44,278 bases of DNA from a virus (UHGV-0261880), one strand, 5' to 3'; counted from the first letter of the stretch, positions 1 through 39,893 are shown. The notes: generated from the sequence alone by a model not told the origin. Translations and numbers: made by a program.

Positions 1-2331
1 ATTATGCCTTGCTTCGTTGCCGAATGAAAACTCAGTTTTTAGCGCACTATTCCCCGTGTAGATTGCTTCTTCCGGTGCGGATAGCATAATCACCTCGCGG
101 TCGTGGCTTCCTTTGATAACAGAGATACTCTGCACAGAGCCGTCGCGCTTCTTGAGGATGATGGAGTGGTCATCGCCGGGGGTAAACGTAACCGGCTGTG
201 ACAGTGTCAGCGTAAGCCCATTAACGGCAACAACATAGCCATCCTGCGGCGCGATACGCGAGCCTTTGACCACACTGATTACGCCTCCCGGTGTAGCGAG
301 TGCCCCCTCTTCCGTAGCTTCGAACTCTACGACAACTTTACTTAATGCATTGCGCTGATAGCGACGCCACGCCAGCCAATATGCCTGTTGGTAGTTGCGC
401 ACGCCTTTTGACTCGTATTCCTCAGTGTTTGCGCCGAGTTCTTCCGGGATATAAATCGTTTCCTGTACGTTCGTATCCGGGTCGATGTACGAGAACGACA
501 GGCTATCGTAGGTTGTCGAATCGTTGAATGTGCGCGTCCATTTCTCCGTACCGGTAGTTTTACTGCGGTGGGTGAACACCATCTCAGGCCCAGCAACCGG
601 ACGGTCGAATCGCAGCATAATATCCGCGCCTTTACGATATGCGGTACAGAACACGGCTTCCGCTATAGTCTGAACGATGTCCTGCATCGTGGTGTCGTAG
701 TCGTCGAACGTGTAGCAGAACTGCCCTGCTAACTCGCTACCGAAATAGGACTCAATTTCTTCCTGCACGGCAAGCAACTTATCCATGTTTGCCGTTGTCA
801 GTTCCAGATTACCTACTGCAGGGTCACGAGCCAGTCGGATTAGCGATTGTACGGCTTGCGTGTTCGGGGTCATTACTGTATCGAATACCCCATTGCCTAG
901 ATATTTGTAGCACATCTCGGTTGCAATCATGCGCAGTTCCGGGTTGTCAATACTGGCGGCACGCGGTGTCTGTTTACGGGCGCAATGTACGGTAGTTCGG
1001 TTGCCGTAATGCGGGGTTGTGTCCAGAGACTGCCCGTACAGGTTGATGAATGTTATCTCATCACTTACGGTCCCGTCGTAACCCTTATCGAAATTCGTTA
1101 TACGGCGCATACGGGCGCGGAAACGAGATGCAGTAGGCAACTGCCCATAAATAGACGTGCCGACGTAGTCAGTATTATTGCCGGTAATTGTTGCCCGTAC
1201 CGTGTAGATATCGCTCAACGGGTTACGCCGAGAATCAATCATCTGGTACTGGAGTTCCACCGTTACGCTGGTGCGGTTATAACCGCCGTCGTATTTGTAG
1301 AGGCCGTTCTGCCCTGCGACGTTAACGAGCACCCGGTCAACTTCTCCGCGAACCATGTAATACCAGTCGGTAAGGGATACGTCATAGGTGTTGCTAGGGC
1401 CGATGAACGTATCTGAACGCTCTGTCAGGGCGTAAGTCTGCCCACTATTAAGATTGCCCCAGTTACCTATATTCCCGACGTACAACTGAACTTCGAAGTC
1501 GTCGACATATAAAACCTCAAACGAGCCGTTCAGGTTAGTGACGTCCTTAACGTCAAAATTGCTCAACACTGCGACGTCACCAACACTAAGAAACTCAGAA
1601 AAAGCCGAGTCACCAGACGGGTCATAGAGGTAGCCGGTGGTCGAAATACGTTTGGCGGTCCCACCGGCGCTTGGGTTAGCCCCAATGTCGTTTGGCGCTT
1701 TGAGCACAATACCGTCAACGTCGTCATTGGAGTACGTCACATAGAGCTTCTGGTCAATGACGTCGCCGATTTGTAGTTGTGGCGATGTGGTGTTGTTCGG
1801 TGACGTATACGGCGCATACACGGCAACAGAGGAACCAGTGATATCGCTTATCAGGGTGTCGCCTTCTGTGACACCATTTGCCTCAATATGCAGATGCCCG
1901 CGCCCCGCGTCATAGTACGAATACTCCAGCAAAGCACCAGTGGAGTTGAACGCCTTGTACGTCTGCATCAGGTCATTAGGGATTGTCTGTACAGTCCCAC
2001 AGATGTCATATGAGCGCTCGTAAGGGCGAGGCTTGTTGGATCGGTCTGTGAGGCTATTATTCGGCGACGTTGTCTGGTAGTTAGTCGCCGTGTAGTTGGC
2101 ATTAGGTGTCTTGTTAAGGCCAAATAACTTGGCAATTGGCTTAAGGATAAAACCGAATACACTCCCGATAGCTTTGCCAATGCCACCACCTGACCCCTCA
2201 ATAATGTGGTACACAGCGTCTTCGTCTTTAAGCGCTTCGAAGTCGTCTGTAACATCAGTATCATCGCCGATCTCGCCGAGATAGACGCGCACAGGTACAC
2301 CGTCAGGAATACGGTTAACAACAAACTCCAT
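1..2331 (-). CDS. Tail tip / host-specificity fibre protein (J-like), N-terminal part; 3' end lies beyond the left window edge
   Basis: Minus-strand frame opens at ATG ~2331 (alternative TTG ~2403 preceded by GGAGA) and translates MEFVVNRIPDGVPVRVYLGEIGDD... with no stop for at least ~270 codons; absent from ORF track because its stop is outside the window; sits directly downstream of the K-like gene. Continuity to position 1 was not fully verified. Confidence 0.5.
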   Translation of the reverse strand, partial: MEFVVNRIPDGVPVRVYLGEIGDDTDVTDDFEALKDEDAVYHIIEGSGGGIGKAIGSVFGFILKPIAKLFGLNKTPNANYTATNYQTTSPNNSLTDRSNKPRPYERSYDICGTVQTIPNDLMQTYKAFNSTGALLEYSYYDAGRGHLHIEANGVTEGDTLISDITGSSVAVYAPYTSPNNTTSPQLQIGDVIDQKLYVTYSNDDVDGIVLKAPNDIGANPSAGGTAKRISTTGYLYDPSGDSAFSEFLSVGDVAVLSNFDVKDVTNLNGSFEVLYVDDFEVQLYVGNIGNWGNLNSGQTYALTERSDTFIGPSNTYDVSLTDWYYMVRGEVDRVLVNVAGQNGLYKYDGGYNRTSVTVELQYQMIDSRRNPLSDIYTVRATITGNNTDYVGTSIYGQLPTASRFRARMRRITNFDKGYDGTVSDEITFINLYGQSLDTTPHYGNRTTVHCARKQTPRAASIDNPELRMIATEMCYKYLGNGVFDTVMTPNTQAVQSLIRLARDPAVGNLELTTANMDKLLAVQEEIESYFGSELAGQFCYTFDDYDTTMQDIVQTIAEAVFCTAYRKGADIMLRFDRPVAGPEMVFTHRSKTTGTEKWTRTFNDSTTYDSLSFSYIDPDTNVQETIYIPEELGANTEEYESKGVRNYQQAYWLAWRRYQRNALSKVVVEFEATEEGALATPGGVISVVKGSRIAPQDGYVVAVNGLTLTLSQPVTFTPGDDHSIILKKRDGSVQSISVIKGSHDREVIMLSAPEEAIYTGNSALKTEFSFGNEARHN

Positions 2332-2393
2332 CGGCGTCCCGACGTGTTTTGTACGGTCGAAAGCGCCGTCGGCGTTTCGCGTGTAGTGCAGGA

Positions 2394-2759
2394 TTATCGC
2401 CAAAATTCAATCTCCGTGTACGTGTCTCTGAGGTCCGCCAGCCTGTCAAGCCGTACCTGACGTGACGCAAGCTCGCAATGGCTGACCATCCCGTCGAAGT
2501 AGACTCCTGCGTGCCACACGATACGACCGCCACGGCGATACCCCATAAGCACCGCGCAGAAGTTTTCAGGCTTATCAATTTTCGTAAGCCCCTTCGTGTC
2601 CCGGCGGCCTTCGTCAAACGCTTCGTTAATCGCCGTTGGGCTTGTAACGTCGAACGCCGGTGTTTCTAACCCGGCATCCGCCCGCACAATTCGCACATGA
2701 TGCCAGCAATTGCGCTTGCGAAAGTCGTAAGGTATGCCCGTGTAGTCGTTAATGTTCAT
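2394..2759 (-). CDS. Tail assembly protein, NlpC/P60-type peptidase (lambda K-like)
   Basis: 121 aa; Cys in NCWHH and downstream His in WHAGVY resemble the NlpC/P60 Cys-His pair; position between minor tail proteins and J-like gene. Confidence 0.55.
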   Translation of the reverse strand: MNINDYTGIPYDFRKRNCWHHVRIVRADAGLETPAFDVTSPTAINEAFDEGRRDTKGLTKIDKPENFCAVLMGYRRGGRIVWHAGVYFDGMVSHCELASRQVRLDRLADLRDTYTEIEFWR

Positions 2760-3286
2760 GTGGTCAACAGGCCGCGTAATAACGGTATCTCTTTAGGTGT
2801 CATCAGTATACCAGTGCTTCGTTGGTGCAGCATAGGTGTACCAACATCTGCGGAGAACTCGCCTTTCTCCTGGTTGATAGCCTGCAACTCGTACACGACC
2901 GGGCCGTCAGCCGGATAAGACAGGTCGGTGCTGACGTAACGGCGGAAGACGAACTTAGGCAACTCAGTATTGCTCATCGGGATTTTATCCATCTCATCAT
3001 CCAGTTGATTGAGGATATCCGGTAAAGTAAACGTCGTAGTCTGGTCCATATCACTGTTGTTAGCCGCTCCCGACGCCTCCATCGGGGTTGGCTCGAATGT
3101 TATTGCTTCGCCCGTCTCCAGTGTTGCTGTAAGTTCCTGCAGCCCGCGAACAAGATAGTACGTCTTTGACAGCAACGGGTGGCTGATTTGCAACGTGATG
3201 TAGTCCATCTCGCCGTCGGGGTTTGAGGCCAGTTTACGGCGATAGGCGGCTTCTACTGATTCCTGGCTCATTGCATCGGGTCCCAA
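2756..3286 (-). CDS. Minor tail protein (L-like position)
   Basis: 176 aa ORF overlapping its neighbours by a few nt in the tail module downstream of the tape measure; call by synteny only. Confidence 0.45.
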   Translation of the reverse strand: MGPDAMSQESVEAAYRRKLASNPDGEMDYITLQISHPLLSKTYYLVRGLQELTATLETGEAITFEPTPMEASGAANNSDMDQTTTFTLPDILNQLDDEMDKIPMSNTELPKFVFRRYVSTDLSYPADGPVVYELQAINQEKGEFSADVGTPMLHQRSTGILMTPKEIPLLRGLLTT

Positions 3287-3768
3287 ATTCGTGGAAACGT
3301 TGATTGCGCGGTTCCGTAGGCTTTAAGGAAACACCCCAGCCCGTCACCATAGCAACCATACAAATCGGGCAGATTGTTAACAAGGCACTGATTCTCGAGG
3401 TCCTGGAACGGCGATTTCTCAGCGGTTGCCGTGAAAGTAATTGTCCAGTTAATGCCATCTTCTGTGGACTCTGCGATGGTTGACGTGATAGTTACCTGAT
3501 AATCCTGTATGCCCATGCCGAAGTCGTGCGCCATCCAGAAACTTGACGCACCACCATCGACTTTCTCAAGGAACGACAGAAACGCCTGTCGTCCAAGCGC
3601 TGAGGTAATCAGGGTTACACTTATCGGGAACACGTCGTAATACGTGTCACGGCCCTGACGCACCCCGCCACCTGCTAAATCAACGCTCCAGACGTTGTTG
3701 CGTCTGGTCATTGAGTAGCCTTTCGATACCACCGGCTTAAGTCTACGTGGGAAATATAAGTCGCTCAT
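3268..3768 (-). CDS. Minor tail protein (M-like position)
   Basis: 166 aa ORF immediately downstream of tape measure (start abuts the tape-measure stop); call by synteny. Confidence 0.45.
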   Translation of the reverse strand: MSDLYFPRRLKPVVSKGYSMTRRNNVWSVDLAGGGVRQGRDTYYDVFPISVTLITSALGRQAFLSFLEKVDGGASSFWMAHDFGMGIQDYQVTITSTIAESTEDGINWTITFTATAEKSPFQDLENQCLVNNLPDLYGCYGDGLGCFLKAYGTAQSTFPRIWDPMQ

Positions 3769-6095
3769 TACTTGAACCCCGGCGCGTTTCTTGTGGCCTT
3801 GCGGGCCTTGCTAATCTTGCTGTTGCTGTTCTGCAAAGATGCGGCAACTTGCTCCTCGATGATAATACGCAGACGGCCTTCATCATCTTGCTCAGTGGAT
3901 ACGTTGCCGATTTGAGAACTCGTGTTGTTTACGATAGTAACATTAGATGGCCCGGAAGAAGACCCGTTTTGCCCCATAATTTCTTTCATCTGCTGTGCGG
4001 TGCGAACACGCGACGCACCAGCTGGCATGATAACTTCTGGTTTACCACGTTCTGCGATGGTGGAAGCCTGCCCAGCGGACAACTGACCGCCCTGCTCACG
4101 CGCCGAGCGGATTTTGGCGATATTAGCCAGCCCCGCGGCAACGGCAGTAGCCGCGGCAACCGGCGCCAGGAATGGGCCGACAACAGGGATGGCAGCCGTT
4201 GACTTATATGCCTCGATAGCTGATGTGTACGTGGCGATAGTTGCCTGCGCAATAGCAAACGCTTTATACGCGGTGGACGCCTCGCCAAATGCGGTTTTGG
4301 CATTAGCCGCCATGTCTCCGAAGGCATCTCCGGTGGCTTTGGCGCGCTTCATTGAATACTGCTCATCCAGGGCTAGGAGCGCCATCTGGTACTGTTCGGC
4401 GTTAATTATGCCGTCTGCCATGTATTTTGAGATGATATTCGCTTTTTGGGACTGTTGTATTTCCAGAAGCTCAAGCTCAGTAGCGTTCTGGCCCATAATC
4501 TGCGCCATGAAGTCGTCGCCTTTCTGCTGCTTTTCCTGGGCTTCTTTTCTTTTCTTATCCAGTTCTTCCTGTCGGGCCTGCTCGGCGGTGAGCATAATCT
4601 GCGTTTTGGCGTTTTCGTACTGCTGCTGGCTTATAGTTCCAGCGCGGTTGAACTCTTCAAGTTTCGCCAGTTTCTGCTCTTCTGCCGCTGTAATACGTGA
4701 AATTTCGTCTCCAGTTGTGCGGTCGACAGTAGCGAGGAAATCTTCCGCCGCTTTTTTCTGACGTTGTGCCGCCGTTTCTTCGCGTTTGGCTTGTGCCGCC
4801 AGGCGTTTCTCGTTCGATTTAGCCTCTCGGTCTGCCTTCGCTTTTTCGGTCGCGTCGATGCGAGCGATGTCCTGCTGCGCTTCCGTATCACGGGCGGCGT
4901 TATACGCGGCTATCTGTTCTTTGGTGACAGCTTCACGTTTAGCAAACGCCTGCTTATCCAGTTCAGCTTGCGCCCGGATGCGCTCACGGTCGCTTAAGAT
5001 GGCGATTTGCTGATTCTTGACGATAGCTTCGTTCTGTTCCTGGAACCTCTGCGTGGTTGAGTTAACGTTACGGCCGAGATTCTTTTGGGCCTCCGCCGCC
5101 GCGTTTGCCGACTTCTCCGCGTTCTCCAGTGCCGTGGCGTTCTTGTTGGCGTTGTCCGTCAGGCGGATAAGTTCCGGGTTCAACTGTTTTGTGTTACCGA
5201 GCCAGTCGGTAAACACATCGGCGATGCGACGGGCATTCTCGGCGGTTGGCTCTTTGTTAAACGCGCTCTGCGCCGCTATCATCTCCAGCGCCTGGTCACG
5301 GTTAACCCCGAACTTACTGCTAAGCTCTGCGATATTCTGCGCCAGCATGTTGACGCCTACGATGTTACCCTCGTAAGTGCCGCCGAGTTTTTCTAATGTG
5401 TCGCCTACATCCGCACCCTTAGAGACCAGTGCATCGTACTGGCTGATCGCCGACGCCGTGGAGGCTTTCCACGTTTCCCACGATTCAGCATCTTCACGAA
5501 CAGCTTTAGCGGTTTGCTGCGCGATAAGGTCCGCGTTAGCCTTAGCCAGGGCGAGTTGCGTTTCCGCGGCTTCGCGGCTAATTTGCGTAAGTTGAATAAG
5601 ACCGTCTGTCAGTTCGAGGGAGCCAGATGCCGTTTGCTGGAAAGTATCCTTTAACTGTTTCTGCGCGGCTTCGAGGTCTTTTGAACTACCTTCTGCTTCG
5701 GTTAGCGATTTGTACAGGACCCCGCCAACAGCCGACGCAAGAGCAATTACAGCCCCAAGCACCGCACCACCGGGGCCGAAAGCACCCGCAAGCTGCGAAC
5801 CTTGTTGCCCGATTGCTACGAATGCAGACGTACCGGATTGCAACTGGACTACCATGTCCTGCACCTGGAAGCCAACCTGCCCGGCAGCGTTACGGAACTT
5901 GGCAAAACCGTCGGACGCTGCTTTAGAGGTAGCGGAGTTTACTTTATTAACATCAGGCGTTAGTTTGTTTACTGCGGTATCCGCACGGTCTGCAGACGAT
6001 GCCATAGCGTCAAGCTGTTTGGCAGCTACGTCGGCACCTTCTGTTTTTACTCTGGCAATTAGGGAAGCCGTATCAGCCATCTTCTCTGCCCTCAA
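3768..6095 (-). CDS. Tail tape measure protein
   Basis: 775 aa, long Ala/Gln/Glu/Lys-rich coiled-coil-like middle, hydrophobic Gly/Ala-rich segments, position after G/T chaperones. Confidence 0.85.
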   Translation of the reverse strand: MRAEKMADTASLIARVKTEGADVAAKQLDAMASSADRADTAVNKLTPDVNKVNSATSKAASDGFAKFRNAAGQVGFQVQDMVVQLQSGTSAFVAIGQQGSQLAGAFGPGGAVLGAVIALASAVGGVLYKSLTEAEGSSKDLEAAQKQLKDTFQQTASGSLELTDGLIQLTQISREAAETQLALAKANADLIAQQTAKAVREDAESWETWKASTASAISQYDALVSKGADVGDTLEKLGGTYEGNIVGVNMLAQNIAELSSKFGVNRDQALEMIAAQSAFNKEPTAENARRIADVFTDWLGNTKQLNPELIRLTDNANKNATALENAEKSANAAAEAQKNLGRNVNSTTQRFQEQNEAIVKNQQIAILSDRERIRAQAELDKQAFAKREAVTKEQIAAYNAARDTEAQQDIARIDATEKAKADREAKSNEKRLAAQAKREETAAQRQKKAAEDFLATVDRTTGDEISRITAAEEQKLAKLEEFNRAGTISQQQYENAKTQIMLTAEQARQEELDKKRKEAQEKQQKGDDFMAQIMGQNATELELLEIQQSQKANIISKYMADGIINAEQYQMALLALDEQYSMKRAKATGDAFGDMAANAKTAFGEASTAYKAFAIAQATIATYTSAIEAYKSTAAIPVVGPFLAPVAAATAVAAGLANIAKIRSAREQGGQLSAGQASTIAERGKPEVIMPAGASRVRTAQQMKEIMGQNGSSSGPSNVTIVNNTSSQIGNVSTEQDDEGRLRIIIEEQVAASLQNSNSKISKARKATRNAPGFK

Positions 6096-6345
6096 ATATT
6101 CCGTCTAAGCCCATGATAACCTCGGCTTCGAACAAACTTATGCCGTAACCGGCGACATCACGAAACGCTACCAAATCTTGCCATTTGAGCGCATCGCGCG
6201 GGATTATAACGATAGTATCATCTGTTTCGCGCTGTAGGAATTTAATGGCACGGTATTTCTCGAACACGTCGATAAGAGAAACGGGGCATTCTGGCCCCGT
6301 CGTTTCTTTCATCTGCGGTTCTTTAATCACGCCCATTGCAATCAA
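6073..6345 (-). CDS. Tail assembly chaperone, frameshift-extension segment (T-like)
   Basis: Track ORF starts at a TTG; the same frame is open upstream across the stop of the 6435..6851 gene and is -1 relative to it. Confidence 0.45.
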   Translation of the reverse strand: MIAMGVIKEPQMKETTGPECPVSLIDVFEKYRAIKFLQRETDDTIVIIPRDALKWQDLVAFRDVAGYGISLFEAEVIMGLDGIFEGREDG

Positions 6346-6434: not shown

Positions 6435-6851
6435 TTACTTTTCCGAGAGTTTCTCGCGGCTATCGGTGTGGTGTTTAACTACGGCTTCTGCCAGTCCGCT
6501 GTACTGGTCTAACAGGTTAGCCAGCGCCTCTTTGCTGAACGGTTCATCAAATGACCAACCGGTGACGATTTCCACAGCAAGCTGCTTGTTCAGGTCCATC
6601 ACCCGCCAGCCCTTCTCATCGTTATAGCGCGCCCAGTTATTCAGCGCCTCGCACTCTTTATCTAATGGCGCAAGTTCTTCCGTAAGGCGTCGAATTGCCG
6701 TTGTGTAGGCGCGGCCCGCACGAACGCCAGCATCACAGTCCGGGCCAATGACCTGCAACCATTCGCCGGAGTCTTTACCACTCGGCAGAAGGATAGGCAT
6801 TTTAGTACCGGCGGCGTGGCGGTCGGCAAAATAGAAATCAGAAAGTTTCAT
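6435..6851 (-). CDS. Tail assembly chaperone (G-like)
   Basis: 138 aa, immediately upstream of tape measure and followed by an overlapping -1 frame ORF, the conserved G/GT arrangement. Confidence 0.55.
   Translation of the reverse strand: MKLSDFYFADRHAAGTKMPILLPSGKDSGEWLQVIGPDCDAGVRAGRAYTTAIRRLTEELAPLDKECEALNNWARYNDEKGWRVMDLNKQLAVEIVTGWSFDEPFSKEALANLLDQYSGLAEAVVKHHTDSREKLSEK
6436..6446 (-). other. Candidate -1 programmed ribosomal frameshift site (CGGAAAAG) at the 3' end of the G-like chaperone gene
   Basis: Zero frame reads ...CTC TCG GAA AAG TAA; -1 frame reads ...GGA AAA GTA AAA... and stays open into the 6073..6345 ORF; heptamer resembles but is not identical to lambda G GGA AAG. Confidence 0.4.
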
Positions 6852-6958
6852 TCTTTAATCCTTTGGTTAAGAGGTTACTGGTTAAGGTTGACGCGCCAGA
6901 CGGGAACCACCCGCTTTTCGTGTGCGACACTAGGCGCAAACTTATTCTAGCACACTAC

Positions 6959-6987
6959 TTGCACACCCCAATATAATAGGGTACTAT
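6959..6987 (+). promoter_or_regulatory. Sigma70-like promoter TTGCAC-N17-TACTAT with embedded palindrome AATAG-ggta-CTATT
   Basis: TTGCACaccccaatataatagggTACTATtca about 30 nt upstream of the 7016 start; near-identical copies at 16871 (+), 29274 (-), 28141 (-). Confidence 0.5.
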
Positions 6988-7015
6988 TCACCCGTAACTT
7001 ATTGAGGAAATAATT

Positions 7016-7342
7016 ATGCGTAAATCAGTATTAGCTCTAGGGTTTATGTCTTTTTCTACCTTTGGGTCCCCGTGCGAACAGGTATTTAGTGAATCTGTTC
7101 TTATTACCTCTGGTGTACTTGAGAAAGCCGACCCTACTATTGTAAAGGCGTTTAAGGACTCTACTGTTCGCGAGTGTGAGGCTGCCGTAGAGGTTGGTAA
7201 ATCGGGCCTGCCTCCGCAAGCCGTAACATACTCTGTAATACGTTCGGTAGAGAAAAACGGAGACGCGTTTTACAGCCTACTGACAGCCACCCGTCTGCAA
7301 ATGGTAATGACTGGATGGGCAATAGGCGCAGAAAGTAAATAG
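7016..7342 (+). CDS. Small secreted/periplasmic protein (signal peptide), opposite-strand insertion in tail module
   Basis: 108 aa; N-terminus MRKSVLALGFMSFSTFGSPCEQ is a signal peptide; own promoter; encoded antisense to the surrounding tail genes. Confidence 0.6.
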   Translation: MRKSVLALGFMSFSTFGSPCEQVFSESVLITSGVLEKADPTIVKAFKDSTVRECEAAVEVGKSGLPPQAVTYSVIRSVEKNGDAFYSLLTATRLQMVMTGWAIGAESK

Positions 7343-7407: not shown

Positions 7408-8538
7408 ATGGCCAGGAAGAAAATAACTGACGAACAGTTGCAGGAAGAATTGAACGCCGGGATGAAGAACGTAGACATCGCCCGTAAATACGGCATCTCA
7501 GACCGCGTTATTCGTATCCGTAAAGCGAAGCTGGCTAAAAAAGGCGTAGGTCACGGGCGTGACGTTAGTTACCTTGTGCCAGATGGCTACAAGATTAAAG
7601 GAACGTCGTCACTTGTGGATGAGTTCGGCAACACTAAGTTGCAATGGGTTAAGACAGACACCGACGCCGAACGTCAGGTCGAGTTGATGAACGCCGTAAT
7701 CGAAGGCATGAAGTCAGAGATTACCCCCGTTGCGCCTGTTAAAGCCGCCCGCGCTAAACGAGACGATAAACTACTCAATCTTTACACGGTATCTGATTTC
7801 CATCTCGGCATGCTGGCATGGGCCGACGAGAGCGGCGACGACTGGGACATGAAAATCGCGGAAGACCTGTTTTCTCGCTGGTTCGACGCGGCGTTTCAGA
7901 AAGCACCGGATGCAGGAACAGGGGTTATTAATCTGCTTGGCGACCTCGCTCACTTCGATAGCCTGGACGCCGTTACACCGGCAAGCGGTCATGTTCTTGA
8001 CGCAGACACGCGCTATCAGAAACTTGTCCGCTACATGATTCGCATGGTCCGCCGTGTTGTCGATATGGCGCTGGTTAAGCATAAAAATGTTCGCTTGCTT
8101 ATCGTACAAGGGAACCACGACGAGAGTGGCATGATTTGGTTGGCTGAGATGTTCAGTACGCTGTATGACAATGAGCCGCGTGTGTTCGTCGATACGTCGC
8201 CGGATGTTTACAAGATGGTCCAGCACGGCAAAACGACGCTGTTCTTTACGCACGGGCATAAATGCCGGTTTGAGGTGGTCGAACCCATTATGATAGCTAA
8301 GTTCAGAAAAGCATTTGGCGAAAGCGAGTACAGTTACGCACATGTCGGGCATCTCCACCATCAAAAGATTGTAGAAAGTAGGAATATGGTAGTGGAACAA
8401 CATCGCACTCTCGCGGCGAAAGATGCATATGCTTCCCGCGGTGGGTGGATGTCTGGCCGTAGTGCAAATGTAATTACTTATAGCGCCGAATATGGCGAAG
8501 TCGCACGTTTAACTATTTCACCGGAGATGCTGGGATGA
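7408..8538 (+). CDS. Calcineurin-like metallophosphoesterase with N-terminal HTH-like domain (SbcD/Mre11-like or phosphatase)
   Basis: 376 aa; motifs SDFHLG, GDLAHFD, GNHDE, HGH, GHLHH match the metallophosphoesterase signature; N-terminal ~50 aa DIARKYGISDRVIRIRK looks like HTH. Confidence 0.75.
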   Translation: MARKKITDEQLQEELNAGMKNVDIARKYGISDRVIRIRKAKLAKKGVGHGRDVSYLVPDGYKIKGTSSLVDEFGNTKLQWVKTDTDAERQVELMNAVIEGMKSEITPVAPVKAARAKRDDKLLNLYTVSDFHLGMLAWADESGDDWDMKIAEDLFSRWFDAAFQKAPDAGTGVINLLGDLAHFDSLDAVTPASGHVLDADTRYQKLVRYMIRMVRRVVDMALVKHKNVRLLIVQGNHDESGMIWLAEMFSTLYDNEPRVFVDTSPDVYKMVQHGKTTLFFTHGHKCRFEVVEPIMIAKFRKAFGESEYSYAHVGHLHHQKIVESRNMVVEQHRTLAAKDAYASRGGWMSGRSANVITYSAEYGEVARLTISPEMLG

Positions 8539-9023
8539 AAGATATTGTGATTTTCGATTTAGACGGGACATTAGCTGATGGTACACACCGTTTACACCTG
8601 CTGCCGAAAGATAACTACAACGAAACATGGGCGTGGAAGCCTTTTAACATGGCCTGTAAAGATGATGCGCCGATATATGACAACATTCACTTGTGCAACA
8701 CGCTGTGGCATACCGGGATGACCGTAATTATCCTTACCGGGCGCAGTGATGATGCCGAGGGTGAGACTCGTAAATGGTTGCGAGAAAATAACGTTAAGTT
8801 TGACACGCTGATAATGCGCAGCAAACACGACAACAGAAAAGACATCGTAATTAAAGAAGAGGTGTTGCTCGCCATCGGGCTGGAGAGAATCTTGTGTGCG
8901 TTCGATGACTCGCCAGCGGTAATTAAGCATTTCCGCGCCCTCGGTCTGACCACACACGCGGTTACTGAATACGACTGTAACGGGAACTCTACACACTTAA
9001 AATCACACGGGAGCGATAAATAA
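8535..9023 (+). CDS. HAD-superfamily phosphatase, resembling the 3'-phosphatase domain of T4 polynucleotide kinase
   Basis: 162 aa; N-terminal nucleophile motif IFDLDGTLA; ILTGRSD, TRKWL and RKDIVIKEEV segments align by eye with my recollection of T4 Pnk C-terminal domain; start overlaps upstream stop. Confidence 0.7.
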   Translation: MKDIVIFDLDGTLADGTHRLHLLPKDNYNETWAWKPFNMACKDDAPIYDNIHLCNTLWHTGMTVIILTGRSDDAEGETRKWLRENNVKFDTLIMRSKHDNRKDIVIKEEVLLAIGLERILCAFDDSPAVIKHFRALGLTTHAVTEYDCNGNSTHLKSHGSDK

Positions 9024-9577
9024 TGGCTAAGGTAATTATTCTTAATGGCCCTGCGGGTTGCGGGAAAGACACGCTTGCTATGGCGCTGGTAGAAATGGGC
9101 TTTGCGAAAGGAACTACCAGTTTCAAGAATCCAATGTTCAATATTGCTTTGGCAGCGTTAGGCCCGGATGCTTACCACGAATTTCTCGACGGCTACGACG
9201 ACCGGGCGCGGAAAGAAAAGCCAGAGGGTTTTCTCAATGGGTTGTCCCGTCGTCAGTTCATGATTGCCATTTCTGAGCAATTCATTAAACCGGTATTCGG
9301 TGATGATTATTTCGGTAAGTATCTCGCTGAAAACTTGCCTGACGGCGACGAAGTTTTTGTAGTGTCCGACGGTGGATTCGCCAGTGAAGTTGCCCCTATC
9401 GTCGCCGCGGGGCATGACGTGCGAATCGTCCGCCTCCATCGTGACGGCTATACGTTCATCGGCGATAGCCGGGAGTATCTGTACGATGTTAGTGGTGTAA
9501 AAGATTACGACACCTACATCATACAGGGTGACGTTAAATCGAACGTTATAGACATTGCTTTAAAATTAGGTTTGTAA
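9023..9577 (+). CDS. P-loop nucleotide kinase, dNMP-kinase-like (T4 gp1 family)
   Basis: 184 aa; Walker A GPAGCGKDT at residues 9-17; overall pattern resembles T4 gene 1 dNMP kinase from memory; translationally coupled to the HAD gene. Confidence 0.65.
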   Translation: MAKVIILNGPAGCGKDTLAMALVEMGFAKGTTSFKNPMFNIALAALGPDAYHEFLDGYDDRARKEKPEGFLNGLSRRQFMIAISEQFIKPVFGDDYFGKYLAENLPDGDEVFVVSDGGFASEVAPIVAAGHDVRIVRLHRDGYTFIGDSREYLYDVSGVKDYDTYIIQGDVKSNVIDIALKLGL

Positions 9578-9601
9578 GAAAAAGGCCCCGAAAGGGGCCT
9601 T
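9576..9601. terminator. Stem-loop AAGGCCCC-GAAA-GGGGCCTT with flanking A/T run (efficient mainly for minus-strand readthrough)
   Basis: 8-bp GC-rich stem; on the minus strand it is followed by TTTTTC; lies just after the kinase stop. Confidence 0.5.
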
Positions 9602-9614
9602 ATCACAGTAGGAG

Positions 9615-10109
9615 ATGATTATGGATTGGAATGAATTTTTCATATACGATTTAATTTCAGGAAGGATATTTAACAGAGTAACCCGGTCCGGGAGGGCTAA
9701 GGCTGGAGAGGAAGCAGGTACTGTCCAGCGAGACGGATATAGAAGGATATTTTTCCGTGGTAAATGGCATGCGGCGCACCGTATAGCTTGGGACTTAAAC
9801 AATCCTAACGATAAGCTAACCTCGTCAGATCAAATAGACCATCTAGACCATGACCGAATAAACAATAGACCGCTTAACTTAGCTAAAAAGTCCAATGCGG
9901 AAAACCATAAAAATATGTCAAAACAGCGTAATAATAAATCAGGAGTAACCGGAGTTTACTGGAATGCGAAAGAAAGGTTGTGGTACGCACAGATATTCAA
10001 CAATAACGTAAAAACACATATCGGGTGCTTTAAGACGCTACTAGATGCAGTTGCCGCGAGGAGAGTTGCTGAAAGAGATTTGGGGTTCCACGAGAACCAC
10101 GGTAAATAG
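9615..10109 (+). CDS. HNH homing endonuclease with C-terminal AP2-type DNA-binding domain
   Basis: 164 aa; HNH core HAAHRIAW...DHLDHDRINNR; C-terminal SGVTGVYWNAKERLWYAQI...GCFKTLLDAVAARRVAE is AP2-like; AT-rich relative to neighbours. Confidence 0.8.
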   Translation: MIMDWNEFFIYDLISGRIFNRVTRSGRAKAGEEAGTVQRDGYRRIFFRGKWHAAHRIAWDLNNPNDKLTSSDQIDHLDHDRINNRPLNLAKKSNAENHKNMSKQRNNKSGVTGVYWNAKERLWYAQIFNNNVKTHIGCFKTLLDAVAARRVAERDLGFHENHGK

Positions 10110-10110
10110 T

Positions 10111-10137
10111 AAGGCCCCTTTCGGGGCCTTTTCCTTA
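10111..10137 (+). terminator. Rho-independent terminator AAGGCCCC-TTTC-GGGGCCTT + TTTCCTT
   Basis: Exact reverse complement of the 9582 hairpin, placed immediately after the HNH stop; U-tract on plus strand. Confidence 0.55.
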
Positions 10138-11307
10138 CGCGTAGCTAATACGCTGTATTACAATAGAAGATTGATATTGATTGCCTGTGGACTGTCCTTC
10201 TATGCTCTGAGTGATTGACTCAGGTCCGCCAATCTCTGGCGTAACCGCCGTAAGCTCTGCGCGTTTCAAACTGAAAGACATAGCCCCGTTTACCCCCGCC
10301 AGAATAGAGTTAATCTCTACCTGCTGCTCGTTGATAAACTTCTGAATCATCGCCATGTCGTATAGCTTGCCGGAGATGGAGAAGGTGTTTGCCGCGCGGC
10401 TACGTTCCACAAACGCTACGTTAGTGTTGCCGAGTTCGAACTGCGCGGATGCGCTGTTATCGTTGGTGATGGTCAGACTATCACAACGCAACGGCGTAGA
10501 ACCGTCGAACACAGACACATCTACAGACGAGAACGGCTCGTCACCAAACGTGACAGAGGAGAAATCAGAACCAGACGGCGGCTCGGTGAGAATCTCCTGA
10601 CTGCGACCGATGAACGGGAAGCTACCTGTAACCATCGCGTTAACCGCCTGCTCAACGGTAAAACCTGAAACTTCCACGCCTTTAGTCAACGTGTACGCGT
10701 CAGTCCCGCCGCACTGGCCTTTGTACCAGGTAAGAATAGAGAACGTCTTACACTGACTACCAGTCTCCAGCTTATCCCCGGTCTTAGCAGCGGTAGTAAC
10801 AGTCTCTGCGGTCAGAGTGTGCTGGATACCCGTACCAGTGACAACAGTCGCACTTATTTCGGTTACGATAAACGGTTTGGCGTTATCGCCCGTTAAGTCG
10901 GTGAACGCAATCAGGTCGCCTACTTCAACGCCGTCGGTAATAAAGCTACCGGTGGAGCGTGTAAAGGTCTTGCCAGCCGGTGCGACGGTAATCGACAGCC
11001 CTGACAGCGAGACACCTGATTGCCACGTAGAGCCTAAAGCACCTGCCAGCCAGTCATCCTGGCTACGCGAGCTAAGTTCGATAGCGTATTCACCGCTAAC
11101 CTGTTTGTTACCGGTGCGGATGGACGTAGTTTCACGGCTGCCGTCCAGTTCATTGGAGGTCAGCGTGTCTCGGGTAATAGCGGGAACACCGCCAGTGTTA
11201 CGCAACGGCGACCAGACAGGGTTGTCTGGGGTCACGCCCGGGGTAACTTCCGCCACATAGAATTGCGCGGTATTCGCGCCCTTAAAAGGAGTTGTAGCCA
11301 TACTCAC
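10135..11307 (-). CDS. Major tail (tube) protein
   Basis: 390 aa Thr/Ser/Gly-rich beta-type protein, last gene of the head-tail operon before the chaperone pair; call by synteny. Confidence 0.55.
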   Translation of the reverse strand: MSMATTPFKGANTAQFYVAEVTPGVTPDNPVWSPLRNTGGVPAITRDTLTSNELDGSRETTSIRTGNKQVSGEYAIELSSRSQDDWLAGALGSTWQSGVSLSGLSITVAPAGKTFTRSTGSFITDGVEVGDLIAFTDLTGDNAKPFIVTEISATVVTGTGIQHTLTAETVTTAAKTGDKLETGSQCKTFSILTWYKGQCGGTDAYTLTKGVEVSGFTVEQAVNAMVTGSFPFIGRSQEILTEPPSGSDFSSVTFGDEPFSSVDVSVFDGSTPLRCDSLTITNDNSASAQFELGNTNVAFVERSRAANTFSISGKLYDMAMIQKFINEQQVEINSILAGVNGAMSFSLKRAELTAVTPEIGGPESITQSIEGQSTGNQYQSSIVIQRISYA

Positions 11308-12468: not shown

Positions 12469-13082
12469 CAGGCGGCCTCCAGTCTCGAAATAACCAGTAG
12501 CGCAGATGGCGCTGTGCCCCATGCGGTCACGGTAGCGGCTTGTGGGTACACGCCTCCGAAGTTGCTTCCGGCACTATCTCGCATAATCTGAACGGCAAAC
12601 GTCTGGCCTGCGGTGGGGTTAATAACGACACGGGATTCAATCGGGATTGTGATGTCCGCGCTTACCAGTTTCGTGGCGGCGGGCGAGCCATACTGAGCGC
12701 CGTTAAGGAGAATGCGGGACAACAGGATGGATGTACCGCTTGCCCCCGTACGCCCCGCCTGTAACTTGATGCGGACGGCGTAGTTACCCGCAGTGTTGAA
12801 CGTAACCAGACCCGCTGCATTAATCATTACCGGGTCGGATGCACTTCCCTGAGCGGAGCCGAAAGTTAACTGCAACGCCGTATCTACTGCGGTAGGCGCT
12901 TGTATCACGGTCGACGCCGCCCGGAGAACTTCAACCTCTTTAACCCCCGGAGTGGCATAAATAGGCGAGTCCGCCATCTGCGTCATTACCTCGCGCAACT
13001 TCGCTGGGGTAATAAGTCCGGTCGTGTTATCGGGGATGTTCGCGCCGATAAGGGTGAACATCTCTGATTTAGTCTTTGCCAT
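12468..13082 (-). CDS. Structural protein of head-tail region, unknown function
   Basis: 204 aa ORF in the connector block. Confidence 0.4.
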   Translation of the reverse strand: MAKTKSEMFTLIGANIPDNTTGLITPAKLREVMTQMADSPIYATPGVKEVEVLRAASTVIQAPTAVDTALQLTFGSAQGSASDPVMINAAGLVTFNTAGNYAVRIKLQAGRTGASGTSILLSRILLNGAQYGSPAATKLVSADITIPIESRVVINPTAGQTFAVQIMRDSAGSNFGGVYPQAATVTAWGTAPSALLVISRLEAA

Positions 13083-13084
13083 TT

Positions 13085-13597
13085 TTAACCCCGGTACACG
13101 TTAAATGAGAAGCCATTGTTAAGACCGCCACACAGCAACGGGCGTAAAGCGTCGTCCGCAGCGGTAATCGCGGTTGTAGCGCCACTGCTGCCGTTGTTGA
13201 AGTACGTCACGGTCACCGCACCCTCAACACGCTCAGTCTGCACGGAGCGCCCGTCTGAGTTGGCCCGCACCTCAGTACCCGCACCATATGTGGCGGAGGC
13301 GATTACCTGCGCAAGAATCACCTGTTTCGGGATGGCATTGTTTGCTACAGGGAACCCATTCAACGTTACACCAGTACGAGGATACGCCAGAGACTGTTCA
13401 GCAGATACGCGACGACCGCACATCTGCGGTTCTGCAAGCCCAACATAGGTAGCGCCATTACGCAAGGCTACCTCGGCAGCAGTATCGTCTGCTGGTAACT
13501 CAATACCATAATTAGCCGCTAACGCGCGGGCGTCAGCCAGACTAACGTAACTGTCGGCATTCGGGACGATTTCCCCAGTTTCCACGATTAGCGGCAT
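13085..13597 (-). CDS. Head-tail connector / head completion protein
   Basis: 170 aa; N-terminal SYVSLADARALAANYGIELPADDTAAEVAL resembles connector (gp6-type) N-termini; downstream of capsid. Confidence 0.4.
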   Translation of the reverse strand: MPLIVETGEIVPNADSYVSLADARALAANYGIELPADDTAAEVALRNGATYVGLAEPQMCGRRVSAEQSLAYPRTGVTLNGFPVANNAIPKQVILAQVIASATYGAGTEVRANSDGRSVQTERVEGAVTVTYFNNGSSGATTAITAADDALRPLLCGGLNNGFSFNVYRG

Positions 13598-13600
13598 AAA

Positions 13601-13780
13601 TTATTCCTCTGACTTACGGCGACGACGCTTAGCACCACCGCCGTTGTTGTGCGCTTCTTCGTTGTCCGGTTGGGTTGCAACCAGTTCATCCGCTTCTACA
13701 ACACCGCGGACTGGCATCACCTGACCGTCAACAATGCCAACGTGGGAGTACTTTTCGCGGATTACATAATTATCTGCCAT
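13601..13780 (-). CDS. Small basic-tailed protein (59 aa), below ORF-track cutoff
   Basis: ATG preceded by AGGAAAGG; translates MADNYVIREKYSHVGIVDGQVMPVRGVVEADELVATQPDNEEAHNNGGGAKRRRRKSEE; fills the gap between the Ig-like gene and the connector. Confidence 0.4.
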   Translation of the reverse strand: MADNYVIREKYSHVGIVDGQVMPVRGVVEADELVATQPDNEEAHNNGGGAKRRRRKSEE

Positions 13781-13816
13781 GACCTTTCCTTATTACGGCC
13801 CCGAAGGGCCGTTGTA

Positions 13817-14158
13817 TTAAGACACAGTTGCTACGGTGCTACTGGAGATAATATTACCATATACATCGTGAACAACCACTTTATACGTACCGGAATCGGT
13901 GGTAGTAGTGGACGCCTTCGCATAGGAAGCAGCGTTTGCCCCGGCGATAGCGTTGTTATCTTTGTACCACTGGTAGGAATACGGCCCCAGACCGCCAGTT
14001 ACCGCTACGGTCAGTGTCATGGTTTCGCCCGCGGTGACGGAGGTAGTAGCCGCCAGCGCCGATGAGAAAGACGCAGGAGAAATAGTCGCCATGTCAATCT
14101 TAGCCCCCGGGGCGTCAGCGGAGACGCCGGTGATGCGTCGCTTCAATACGTCTGCCAT
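13817..14158 (-). CDS. Ig-like domain protein (candidate capsid decoration)
   Basis: 113 aa; YSYQWYKDNNAIAGANAASYAK...GTYKVVVHDVYGN is an Ig (I-set/Big)-like pattern; directly after major capsid gene. Confidence 0.55.
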   Translation of the reverse strand: MADVLKRRITGVSADAPGAKIDMATISPASFSSALAATTSVTAGETMTLTVAVTGGLGPYSYQWYKDNNAIAGANAASYAKASTTTTDSGTYKVVVHDVYGNIISSSTVATVS

Positions 14159-14219
14159 TTAGGAATCCTCTTAGTAAATGAAAAGAGGGACCGAAGTCCC
14201 TCTCGATTATAGCTTAACC

Positions 14220-15269
14220 TTAAGCACCGACACCAGTTACCAGGAAGGCAATCGGTACATGCTTACGTTCAACCACACGGTTCCAGTTGGAGGCGTTCGC
14301 CAGGTCCTGCCAGGACGCAGAGCGTGCGACTGTCTCAGTGCCGTTGCCGGTGATTACCGCACTAGTGAAGCTGTAGCCCAGTGGGTGCAGCAGCCAGGTC
14401 TTACGGGTCCACAGGGTTTCAACGCCACCACCGTTACCGCGAGACTCTTCGCGCTCATAGGCCAGCGGGTTGGACGGAGAACCTTCACCGTAACCGATAG
14501 CGCCGTTGCCGAAGATGATGGAGATGAACTTGCGGCTCGTGCCGGTGCCGACTACGGTCATGCTGTCGTCAACAATCACGCGGTAGCCCTGGTAGGTGGC
14601 GAACAAGGTATCGTTGTCAGCGTCTTTGATGAAGTCGATAAGCTGCTGCTTACGGGCCTGTGCATAGACGAAGCTGTGCATCGCAATAGCACCGAGAACC
14701 TCACCGCCGTTGCCCATCAGCGCGTCGCCCATAGTCTGGGTAGCGTCGATGAACGCGCCTGCATCGAAGCCCAGAGTAGAGGACACGTCGATTACCATGT
14801 CGTTCTGCTCGTGGTATGCGTCGGTAGCGGCTACGTTGTCGTTGTACAGACCAAGCGCAGTAGCAATCAGACGGCGTTGTGCCTGGCGCTGCCAGAAGTT
14901 ATCCAGACGGGACGCCACTGATTGCAGCGGGTTCTGGCTGGTCAGTTCTACAGTCAAGTCCGCCTGACCGAAACCTTCGTTCAGGTACGCAACGCGCGCC
15001 ATCATCTCACCGGTCTGAACGTTACGCGGGGTTGCGATGTCCTGGTATACGTCGTTCGAGTAGTTCGGCTCGATAGAGGTATCAATCGCTTTCCAGAACG
15101 GAATATTAGCGATGTTGGACGGGCCGCGGGCAATCTCAGCAGCGTACGGAGTCGGGGTCAAAATACCGGACTGGAAGAACGCGGTTTTTTCTACCGGGTC
15201 CTCGGTCATATAAGACGCCAGGACAGGGATGTTGCCAGTTACGATATCGCCGATAGTGGTAATTGCCAT
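14220..15269 (-). CDS. Major capsid protein (HK97 fold)
   Basis: 349 aa directly downstream of scaffold gene, upstream terminator-like structure, size and composition typical of HK97-type capsid proteins. Confidence 0.85.
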   Translation of the reverse strand: MAITTIGDIVTGNIPVLASYMTEDPVEKTAFFQSGILTPTPYAAEIARGPSNIANIPFWKAIDTSIEPNYSNDVYQDIATPRNVQTGEMMARVAYLNEGFGQADLTVELTSQNPLQSVASRLDNFWQRQAQRRLIATALGLYNDNVAATDAYHEQNDMVIDVSSTLGFDAGAFIDATQTMGDALMGNGGEVLGAIAMHSFVYAQARKQQLIDFIKDADNDTLFATYQGYRVIVDDSMTVVGTGTSRKFISIIFGNGAIGYGEGSPSNPLAYEREESRGNGGGVETLWTRKTWLLHPLGYSFTSAVITGNGTETVARSASWQDLANASNWNRVVERKHVPIAFLVTGVGA

Positions 15270-39207: not shown

Positions 39208-39399
39208 ATGAAACACGAATATGACCGCAAACCAGCACGTGACATCGTACCAGGCGACATGATTTTCAACGTTAAAACCCGACAGCCGGTTGCCGTTGAT
39301 ACGGTGTACGTCGAGTCGAACGGTAAACTGGTTATCGAAGACGTAACTGGAAACGTTACGGCGTTCGGGCGTAAAGAGTTAGTTCTGGTGCTGAAATGA
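39208..39399 (+). CDS. Hypothetical protein
   Basis: 63 aa ORF between VRR-NUC and HNH genes. Confidence 0.4.
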   Translation: MKHEYDRKPARDIVPGDMIFNVKTRQPVAVDTVYVESNGKLVIEDVTGNVTAFGRKELVLVLK

Positions 39400-39893
39400 G
39401 TAAATTCAATAGAAGACCCGATATTGAGGAGGCGAAACGTCTTCTTAACTATGACCCCGAAACAGGTATATTTACACGAAAAGTAAGCATAAAAGGGAGA
39501 AATGCTGGGGAGGTAGCCGGAGGGCCAAACGACAAAGGATGCATAGTTATTACAGTCTCCGGTGTAAGAATAAAAGCCCACCATCTGGCATGGGCTTTCG
39601 TCTACGGGGAATATCACAATGGTGAGCTTGACCATAAAGACCGTAACAGGGCCAATAACGCCATAAATAATATAAGGCCCGCAACAAGGAGCCAGCAGAT
39701 TCAGAACCGCGACTGCACCTCGCATAACACCAGCGGCGCGATAGGGGTTTACCAAATACCATCGGGCAGGTGGCGCGCCAGAATAGGCGTCAATAACAGA
39801 TACATCCACCTTGGCTATTTTGACACTATAGAAGAAGCGTCGCGCGTATACCAAAGAGCCGCAGAAATATACTTCGGGGAGTTCAAGGCATGA
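39396..39893 (+). CDS. HNH homing endonuclease with AP2-type domain (second copy of this architecture)
   Basis: 165 aa; KAHHLAWAFVYGEY...DHKDRNRANN; C-terminal IGVYQIPSGRWRARIGVNNRYIHLGYFDTIEEASRVYQRAA is AP2-like. Confidence 0.75.
   Translation: MSKFNRRPDIEEAKRLLNYDPETGIFTRKVSIKGRNAGEVAGGPNDKGCIVITVSGVRIKAHHLAWAFVYGEYHNGELDHKDRNRANNAINNIRPATRSQQIQNRDCTSHNTSGAIGVYQIPSGRWRARIGVNNRYIHLGYFDTIEEASRVYQRAAEIYFGEFKA

Follow-up and report, generated by a model that had tools for sequence, protein, structure and literature searches.

What are three enzyme genes doing on the opposite strand of a phage tail gene block? This question is raised by positions 7408-9577 of UHGV-0261880, a viral DNA of 44,278 nucleotides (we call this whole stretch the window). 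As a first-pass annotation of the sequence had pointed out, three plus-strand open reading frames (ORFs) lie there between the minus-strand genes for the tail assembly chaperones and the tail tube protein, and Pfam identifies both flanks. The genes are joined by overlapping codons. The stop codon of the first overlaps the start codon of the second in an ATGA, and the second and third are joined in the same way by a TAATG. GGAG-like Shine-Dalgarno sequences lie 5' of the second and of the third start codon. We call the products P1, a metallophosphoesterase with a helix-turn-helix (HTH), P2, a HAD phosphatase, and P3, a P-loop kinase (Table 1).

The answer we favour, although we would give it somewhat less than an even chance, is that the cassette is an accessory module for the breakdown of host DNA and the re-phosphorylation of deoxynucleoside monophosphates (dNMPs), analogous to A1, A2 and Dmp of phage T5. 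On this reading the cassette is most likely not an RNA-repair system. Its gene content and arrangement are already known: hundreds of phage records in GenBank carry annotations of the three genes, and the arrangement in Drexlerviridae has been described in a 2026 paper (PMC13164509).

Three enzyme families

The three enzyme superfamilies named in the first-pass annotation are correct according to Pfam, PHROG and fold evidence. All of the motifs quoted there are present as well: SDFHLG, GDLAHFD, GNHDE and GHLHH in P1, IFDLDGTLA and RKDIVIKEEV in P2, and GPAGCGKDT in P3. None of the three proteins falls into a specific NCBIfam family, and PADLOC returns no defence-system match for them.

P1 starts with an HTH that resembles LuxR, GerE and sigma-70 region 4 (about residues 8-44). 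A beta-hairpin linker domain follows, and then a calcineurin-like metallophosphoesterase domain (about residues 119-370). The protein matches phrog_704, 'DNA repair exonuclease', with an E value of 4.6e-166, and Pfam Metallophos_2 slightly below the cut-off (1.9e-5). There is also a weak match to a PHROG called 'late transcriptional activator'. The motif set DxH, GD-x-x-H, GNHD, H and GHxH is complete and all metal ligands are intact. Across 37 homologues with 32-50% identity, D130, H132, D179, N236, H237, H282 and H317 never vary, and at least 90% of the sequences keep H182 and H315.

The fusion of an HTH to a phosphoesterase was initially thought to be atypical. The family does not bear this out. 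Among 4,662 cluster representatives (50%-identity library, E value of 1e-3 or better) nearly all are 370-420 amino acids long and match P1 from near the N-terminus. Hence, judged by length and alignment, the fusion is the standard architecture of the family.

Which activity P1 might have can be asked of its fold. A single-sequence search of the PDB gave no useful match. A profile of the P1 family gave weak matches to PDB sequences, a GerE-type HTH for the N-terminus and, for the catalytic part, SbcD (2q8u) and the metallophosphoesterase (MPE) nuclease 6nvo at E values of about 0.2. The AlphaFold2 model (predicted local distance difference test, pLDDT, of 81) consists of a three-helix HTH, the beta-hairpin domain and the phosphoesterase domain. 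Its top Foldseek matches are Mre11 (4nzv, 4tug) and SbcD (4m0v). The Mre11 match has an E value of 7e-9 but a TM-score (TMq) of about 0.4, and Rv0805, GpdQ and other generic phosphoesterases follow close behind. We also considered P1 as a 2',3'-cyclic phosphodiesterase of the Clostridium Pnkp type or of the lambda phosphatase type and rejected this, since neither is found among the 50 best fold matches.

With Mre11/SbcD and the stand-alone bacterial nuclease 6nvo P1 shares the two-metal fold and the motifs DxH, GDxxH, GNHD, H and GHxH. Identity is low, however (11-14%), and P1 carries its N-terminal HTH and beta-hairpin domain where Mre11 has a capping domain. It also differs from Mre11/SbcD in having no Rad50/SbcC partner: none is annotated in the related genome Bas73, and no SMC-like gene is a recurrent neighbour of P1 relatives in 80 loci. 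As far as the modelled fold can tell, P1 is most likely a nuclease that works without a Rad50/SbcC partner.

P2 is, by its sequence, a small HAD phosphatase of the Pnkp phosphatase-domain family. It scores well above the cut-off of Pfam HAD_PNKP (PF25109; E value 2.7e-20, 73 bits against a cut-off of 27.6), matches phrog_415 (1.2e-65), and finds Pnkp1 (4xrp, 6e-6), and T4 Pnkp (1ltq, 4e-3; 5uj0) as its best relatives among PDB sequences. Aligned with the C-terminal phosphatase domain of a T4-like Pnkp it is 32% identical over 154 columns (1e-15). The DLDGT, (S/T)GR (LTGR in P2), RKD and FDD segments align with those of both T4 and T4-like Pnkp; the alignment does not settle which residue corresponds to Arg176 of T4. 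The resemblance to the 3'-phosphatase domain of T4 Pnkp that had been seen by eye is therefore real. What P2 does not have is a kinase domain. Since the same is true of other stand-alone HAD proteins, their GenBank label 'polynucleotide kinase' is a misnomer.

The T5 protein Dmp also belongs to phrog_415, which it matches over its full length (3.6e-57). Yet in a pairwise BLAST of P2 and Dmp just 17 residues around motif I align, and Dmp has no match to HAD_PNKP. A second comparison comes from the T4-like Krischvirus W115. In this phage a stand-alone HAD that is 39% identical to P2 (3998-4474) directly follows nrdB and overlaps its end. W115 additionally encodes a complete pseT/Pnkp and an RNA ligase. 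In that genome, then, the small HAD is no replacement for Pnkp, and its position suggests a role of the small-HAD clade in nucleotide metabolism.

For P3, Pfam and NCBIfam recognise the P-loop alone. A single-sequence PDB search gave no useful match, and the family profile found just generic P-loop matches to AAA+ ATPases among PDB sequences. More informative is phrog_139, which P3 matches with an E value of 6.2e-45 and T4 gp1, the dNMP kinase of T4, with 1.8e-65. T4-like Pnkp falls into phrog_505 and phrog_2071, and P3 matches neither. The AlphaFold2 model of P3, built with 44 homologues, has a pLDDT of 94. In Foldseek the T4 dNMP kinase (1DEK) has the highest TM-score (TMq 0.67) and is second by E value behind an adenylate-kinase-like protein, although these scores are moderate. 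Other fold matches are the adenylate-kinase-like 3lw7, dephospho-CoA kinase and animal phosphomevalonate kinase (PMK, 7xnd); no Pnkp chain is among the 50 best. With hhalign, P3 aligns with T4 gp1 over 60 columns and with Pnkp over 24, which cover the P-loop only. A P3 homologue of 35% identity in an rV5-like phage adjoins thyX and nrdA. On the strength of the PHROG, the Foldseek match to 1DEK, the hhalign span and these neighbours, we assign P3 by sequence to the gp1 family and not to the Pnkp kinases.

The residues of P3 agree with those of gp1 in some places and differ in others. Both have a GKD(T) P-loop and, by eye, an S-x-R-R...M/L helix motif and a D-x5-E segment. P3 is shorter (184 versus 241 amino acids), about 18% identical to gp1, and by eye has SDGGF where gp1 has its 'PDTR' motif. 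The invariant acidic columns of the P3 family are D16 in the P-loop, E85, D116, E122 and D148; the short segment behind strand 2, where we take the general base of Pnk to sit, contains none of them. To our knowledge, all characterised members of the gp1/phosphomevalonate kinase family phosphorylate a phosphate and never a hydroxyl.

Linkage of the three genes

Are the three genes a unit? To answer this, we counted neighbours in 80 IMG/VR loci with a relative of P1 (8 kb flanks) and in 80 loci with a relative of P3. Around P1 relatives the complete P1-P2-P3 set is found in 10 of 80 loci, P1-P2 in two, and a P3-like gene in the flank in four, directly upstream of P1 in three. In 64 of 80 loci both P2 and P3 are missing within 8 kb. 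Around P3 relatives the picture is very different. A HAD gene is present in 35 of 80 loci. In every case it lies no more than about 1.2 kb upstream and on the strand of the kinase, and the two genes usually overlap or are at most 50 nt apart. When the kinase is at least 45% identical to P3, the HAD lies directly upstream in 32 of 33 loci. The order MPE-HAD-kinase occurs in 23 of the 80. Hence, P2-P3 is a tight evolutionary unit, whereas P1 is an independent and far commoner gene beside which the HAD-kinase pair has settled repeatedly.

Two side observations belong here. On the IMG/VR contigs L026, L033 and L035, which have no HAD in the vicinity, the HTH-phosphoesterase gene is preceded directly by an overlapping gene for a distant P3-like kinase, a second pattern by which kinase and phosphoesterase genes are linked. 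The environmental neighbours of P1, identified by eye from translations, include dATP/dGTP-pyrophosphohydrolase-like proteins (37 loci), NinG-like proteins (25) and cytosine-5 DNA methyltransferases (19), a setting similar to the nin region of lambda.

Outside the environmental contigs, the same three families are found in Drexlerviridae, for example in Webervirus and in T1, where the genes are called 'phosphoesterase', 'pnk' and 'kinase'. Identities to these counterparts are 42-48% for P1, about 58-60% for P2 and about 46-51% for P3. In Webervirus the genes have the same order and tight spacing and lie between a DNA methyltransferase and the holin, by the lysis genes. T1 has separated them: positions 4.9-6.5 kb contain a HAD and a kinase gene with a homing endonuclease between them, and the phosphoesterase is 35 kb away, at 40.8 kb. 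The Drexlerviridae set adjoins the lysis cassette, whereas the Guernseyvirinae set lies within the tail gene block. In 508 of 522 Drexlerviridae genomes the P1-type exonuclease is positioned right before the lysis cassette. The genes that most commonly come directly after the exonuclease are annotated as 'polynucleotide kinase' and 'dNMP kinase', for which the authors of the KanT1 paper proposed 'nucleotide supply' (PMC13164509).

Our window itself is an essentially complete genome of a K1G-like siphovirus (Kagunavirus, Guernseyvirinae). This placement is based on nucleotide matches. The 3.3 kb around the cassette match 259 phage records at 60-95% identity (megablast), with Escherichia phages L AB-2017, M01, CR01 and K1H on top (about 90%) and mostly Kagunavirus and Jerseyvirus genomes among the rest; the first 25 kb of the window show a similar pattern.

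It had been suggested that the cassette was inserted into the tail genes. We considered a recent insertion and rejected it, because both the slot and P1 are conserved across the Guernseyvirinae. Between the chaperone and tail tube genes a P1-type gene is always present, and only the cargo downstream of it varies. Salmonella phage Jersey has the phosphoesterase, a 76-aa ORF and an anti-repressor (2609-5170 of the locus stretch), and Bas73 has the phosphoesterase and the 76-aa ORF alone (12507-14388), both without P2-P3. Many kagunaviruses, K1G and K1H among them, have P2-P3 after P1, and this window has P2-P3 plus an HNH gene. Even among otherwise near-identical kagunaviruses the HAD-kinase pair is variably present. 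In tblastn searches P1 was found in 2,040 phage records (373 of them Salmonella) and P3 in 1,525 (43 Salmonella), which is consistent with jerseyviruses lacking the pair.

Nor is it unheard of for such a gene to sit among structural genes. T4 gene 1 (4650-5375) likewise lies among virion genes (57A, 3, 2 and 4), a classical precedent for a nucleotide-metabolism gene inside a structural block.

Proposed host DNA breakdown and competing explanations

How might proteins of these families act together? P1 would be a two-metal nuclease like Mre11/SbcD, tethered by its HTH, and by analogy with A1 and A2 of T5 its target would probably be host (or other) DNA. P2 would strip terminal phosphates off DNA fragments or mononucleotides. 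P3 would turn the released 5'-dNMPs into deoxynucleoside diphosphates (dNDPs), and nucleoside diphosphate (NDP) kinase of the host could then return these to the deoxynucleoside triphosphate (dNTP) pool for the phage polymerase. What the sequences show is the family membership, the complete catalytic motifs, the linkage of the genes and the lack of a ligase. Which substrates are used, in what order the enzymes act, and that P1 shares a pathway with P2-P3 is our inference.

We favour salvage since P3 is in the PHROG of gp1, homologues of the pair lie beside thyX, nrdA and nrdB, and Dmp is in the PHROG of P2. The Mre11/SbcD-like fold predicted for P1, the precedent of T5 A1, the reported reuse of host DNA by T1 and TLS, of which T1 has all three genes, and the absence of a ligase point in the same direction. 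So do the shared gene order in Webervirus and in 23 of 80 kinase loci and the 'nucleotide supply' that the KanT1 paper proposed independently (PMC13164509). No ligase domain occurs in the ten ORFs of the window's replication module, which agrees with the first-pass annotation, and the annotation of Bas73, a complete and syntenic genome, lists no ligase either.

The model for this reading is the T5 system. Digestion of the host chromosome there requires the predicted metallophosphatase A1, which is also sufficient for it; for infection A1 needs the DNA-binding protein A2. A1 is probably encoded in one operon with A2 and with Dmp, a 5'-dNMP phosphatase that enhances virulence (bioRxiv 10.64898/2026.04.02.716235). 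T1 and TLS are also reported to degrade the host genome, and to reuse the nucleotides; the genes responsible had not been identified as of 2024 (PMC11447400). A DNA-binding module, a metallophosphatase and a HAD phosphatase are common to our cassette and to A2/A1/Dmp, and T5 has a dNMP kinase as well. The parallel between an HTH-phosphoesterase with a HAD and A1/A2/Dmp is striking, but it is an analogy. The HTH is fused in P1, whereas A2 is a separate protein, and T5 excretes nucleosides and does not reuse them (10.64898/2026.04.02.716235).

The similarity of P1 to A1 itself is limited to motifs. A1 (556 aa, gene at 1706-3376) belongs to phrog_1745, which P1 does not match, and has no Pfam domain. 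Its C-terminal half holds metallophosphoesterase motifs in the order of P1 (DIH at 304, SNHD at 395, HGH at 476 and GHTH at 500), including NHD...S.WL and ITY. With hhalign, the P1 family gave a short match to A1 around motif III (20-23 columns, hhalign probability of 17-22%), for the full length as well as for the C-terminal half, and no match to A2. In a BFVD fold search with P1, A1 was not recognisable among the 50 best matches, many of which are unnamed and many of which are uncharacterised phage phosphoesterases.

Several points weigh against the breakdown-and-salvage reading. In pairwise comparison the Pnkp 3'-phosphatase domain is a far nearer relative of P2 than Dmp is. Coupling a 5'-dNMP phosphatase to a dNMP kinase would only create a futile cycle, so simple salvage does not explain why the two are paired, and the adjacency of HAD and kinase in 32 of 33 loci calls for a joint function that is more specific than general salvage. 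E. coli already owns all four dNMP kinases. A three-step pipeline is not obligatory either, because P1 mostly occurs without P2-P3, and jerseyviruses and Bas73 keep P1 alone. The link between P1 and A1 consists of superfamily membership and one short motif. Finally, our literature search found no biochemically characterised member of the P1, P2 or P3 families at this level.

One could argue instead that the cassette is a split version of Pnkp, the end-healing set that the first-pass annotation had proposed. P2 as the 3'-phosphatase and P3 as the 5'-kinase would together turn DNA or tRNA breaks of the 3'-P/5'-OH kind into 3'-OH/5'-P ends fit for ligation, to be sealed by a host ligase (LigA for DNA), while P1 would trim damaged or cyclic-phosphate ends. 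Such a system could counter host nucleases that leave 'dirty' ends. We consider this unlikely, but there is a case for it. P2 is a true HAD_PNKP member with conserved DxDGT, (S/T)GR, RKD and DD segments and is about as small as the Pnkp phosphatase domain, and HADs without a cap favour macromolecular substrates. A phosphatase followed by a kinase is also the order in mammalian PNKP, and the linkage of the pair (35 of 35 pairs within about 1.2 kb) is what one expects of the two halves of one enzyme. Compared with T4 Pnkp (PseT) and its partner Rnl1, however, phosphatase and kinase are two proteins in reverse order, the kinase is of the gp1 type, and the ligase partner is missing. Apart from the P-loop, neither PHROGs nor fold comparison link P3 to Pnkp kinases, and the characterised members of its family, such as gp1 and PMK, have a phosphate and not a hydroxyl as acceptor. 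P1 resembles Mre11/SbcD and not Clostridium Pnkp or lambda phosphatase, and is mostly found without the pair. In W115 a stand-alone HAD sits in the nrd operon besides a full Pnkp and RNA ligase. Of the proposed end-healing set, then, the phosphatase is supported and the kinase and the phosphoesterase are not. The alternative offered with it, dNMP salvage, fits better, although it leaves the HAD-kinase pairing unaccounted for. The annotation had also held that a HAD in a 5'-nucleotidase family and a kinase strictly among dNMP kinases, together with no end-healing activity in vitro, would reduce the cassette to ordinary nucleotide metabolism. Our results go about two-thirds of that way: the kinase groups with dNMP kinases and nothing else, and Dmp belongs to the PHROG of the HAD, which is pairwise closer to Pnkp.

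A bolder reading that we regard as rather unlikely takes P1 as the long-sought host-chromosome nuclease of T1-like phages and makes P2-P3, whose linkage in 32 of the 33 closest kinase loci spans T1-like, K1G-like and other phages, a two-subunit enzyme in which a phosphatase of the Pnkp type is joined by a gp1-type kinase that is not orthologous to that of Pnkp. This could be a new end-healing enzyme that uses another kinase fold family. Alternatively, it could be a mononucleotide-editing couple, which removes danger-signal nucleotides such as m6dAMP and restores dNDPs against defences that deplete dNTPs.

Editing of the nucleotide pool could also be the purpose of the pair on its own, with P2 dephosphorylating modified or signalling mononucleotides such as m6dAMP from the degraded host chromosome and P3 rebuilding dNDPs where the host has reduced dNTPs to dNMPs, which would weaken Metis or PUA-Cal-HAD. 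Of the readings considered here we find this one the least probable. Defences that sense m6dAMP from phage-driven genome degradation do act on the Tunavirinae phage Bas12 (10.64898/2026.01.15.699771; 10.1101/2025.11.05.686725). The HAD of Metis, the host protein MisB, inactivates m6dAMP by dephosphorylation (10.1101/2025.11.05.686725), PUA-Cal-HAD collapses dNTPs to dNMPs, which are substrates of dNMP kinases (10.64898/2026.01.15.699771), and each of the two systems combines a calcineurin-like enzyme with a HAD (10.1101/2025.11.05.686725; 10.64898/2026.01.15.699771). Metis and PUA-Cal-HAD are thus a possible selective context for phage enzymes that handle dNMPs. The variable presence of the HAD-kinase pair in near-identical kagunaviruses is typical of accessory or anti-defence cargo, and Dmp, from the PHROG of P2, is a virulence-enhancing dNMP phosphatase. 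The argument is purely contextual, however: we found no direct link to these systems, and PADLOC adds no match. MisB is annotated as PF13419 and P2 as HAD_PNKP, and Metis still restricts T5 despite Dmp (10.1101/2025.11.05.686725). Neither of the two defence preprints reports a phage kinase or phosphatase as antagonist, and the words 'kinase' and 'Dmp' are absent from their text.

It is also conceivable, although quite improbable in our view, that P1 has nothing to do with P2-P3. P1 would then be an HTH-guided regulator or a protein or nucleotide phosphatase of the late-gene switch, in a position like that of NinI in lambda, and P2-P3 would be cargo. That P1 is usually found alone would fit, as would its place upstream of the Drexlerviridae lysis cassette (PMC13164509), the nin-region-like neighbours recognised by eye, and an HTH that resembles sigma-70 region 4 and GerE together with the weak match to a 'late transcriptional activator'. 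The catalytic domain tells a different story: Mre11/SbcD nucleases rank first by fold and lambda phosphatase is outside the top 50, the nuclease-type metal ligands are invariant, and the Mre11-like GD-x-x-H is present with its H182 conserved. Moreover, several phage groups that are not related to each other have P2-P3 beside P1, and a few loci have the kinase immediately before P1, both of which speak for a degree of functional affinity.

Surroundings and meaning of the cassette

The plus-strand island is larger than P1-P3 (Table 1). A 108-aa ORF precedes the cassette and an HNH gene ends the island. Because other kagunaviruses have a 'superinfection immunity protein' in the place of the 108-aa ORF, this position looks like a variable 'moron' slot. 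Promoters for both directions are presumably located in the divergent intergenic region. A scan of this region gave one sigma-70-like match of 9/12 positions (6987-7014, plus strand), which is not above chance.

Table 1. Features in and around the plus-strand island of the window.
Feature	Position	Strand	Basis or remark
Tail assembly chaperones	6435-6851 and 6073-6345	-	Pfam Phage_TAC_4 and Phage_TAC_18
Divergent intergenic region between tail chaperone gene (-) and plus-strand island	6852-7015		sequence
108-aa ORF with hydrophobic, signal-like N-terminus, function unassigned	7016-7342	+	phrog_14165, 1.4e-53
P1, HTH plus calcineurin-like metallophosphoesterase, 376 aa	7408-8538	+	phrog_704
P2, stand-alone HAD phosphatase, 162 aa	8535-9023	+	Pfam HAD_PNKP PF25109, phrog_415
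P3, P-loop kinase of the T4 gp1 dNMP-kinase/animal phosphomevalonate-kinase family, 184 aa	9023-9577	+	phrog_139
GC-rich hairpin terminator, left arm of 29-nt inverted repeat	9574-9602		directly 3' of P3 stop
HNH (HNH_3) homing-endonuclease gene, outside the cassette	9615-10109	+	Pfam HNH_3 3.6e-6; phrog_99 5.6e-50
Second hairpin copy, right repeat arm, includes tail tube stop codon	10110-10138		inverted repeat
Tail tube protein	10135-11307	-	Pfam Phage_tube_2

The HNH gene is bracketed by the two repeat arms, which are 97% complementary. The GC-rich hairpin is found in both arms, the left arm also containing the stop codon of P3 and the right arm that of the convergent tail tube gene, and there is a terminator-like site on the minus strand at 9601-9582. 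The HNH gene is absent from the closest relatives, and megablast matches of the nearest phages end at about 9602. Hence, the endonuclease appears to have landed within a single bidirectional terminator, which was duplicated in the process. A second homing endonuclease with HNH_3 and AP2 domains (39396-39893), whose product is 32% identical to that of the first, sits immediately 5' of the SNF2 helicase gene, within the replication module. Besides this second endonuclease and the SNF2 helicase, the ten ORFs of this module comprise a primase-helicase, a NinX-like protein, a PD-(D/E)XK exonuclease, an ssDNA-binding protein, a family A DNA polymerase, a Toprim protein and two ORFs without matches.

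What would the cassette mean for the phages that carry it? If the analogy with T5 A1 holds, the HTH-phosphoesterase is a candidate for the host-chromosome nuclease of T1-like and K1G-like phages. The near-constant pairing of a Pnkp-type phosphatase with a dNMP-kinase-type kinase bears on defences that sense or exploit the nucleotides released by genome degradation. Readers of phage annotation, finally, are misled by the database label 'polynucleotide kinase' where it is attached to a stand-alone HAD protein of this type.

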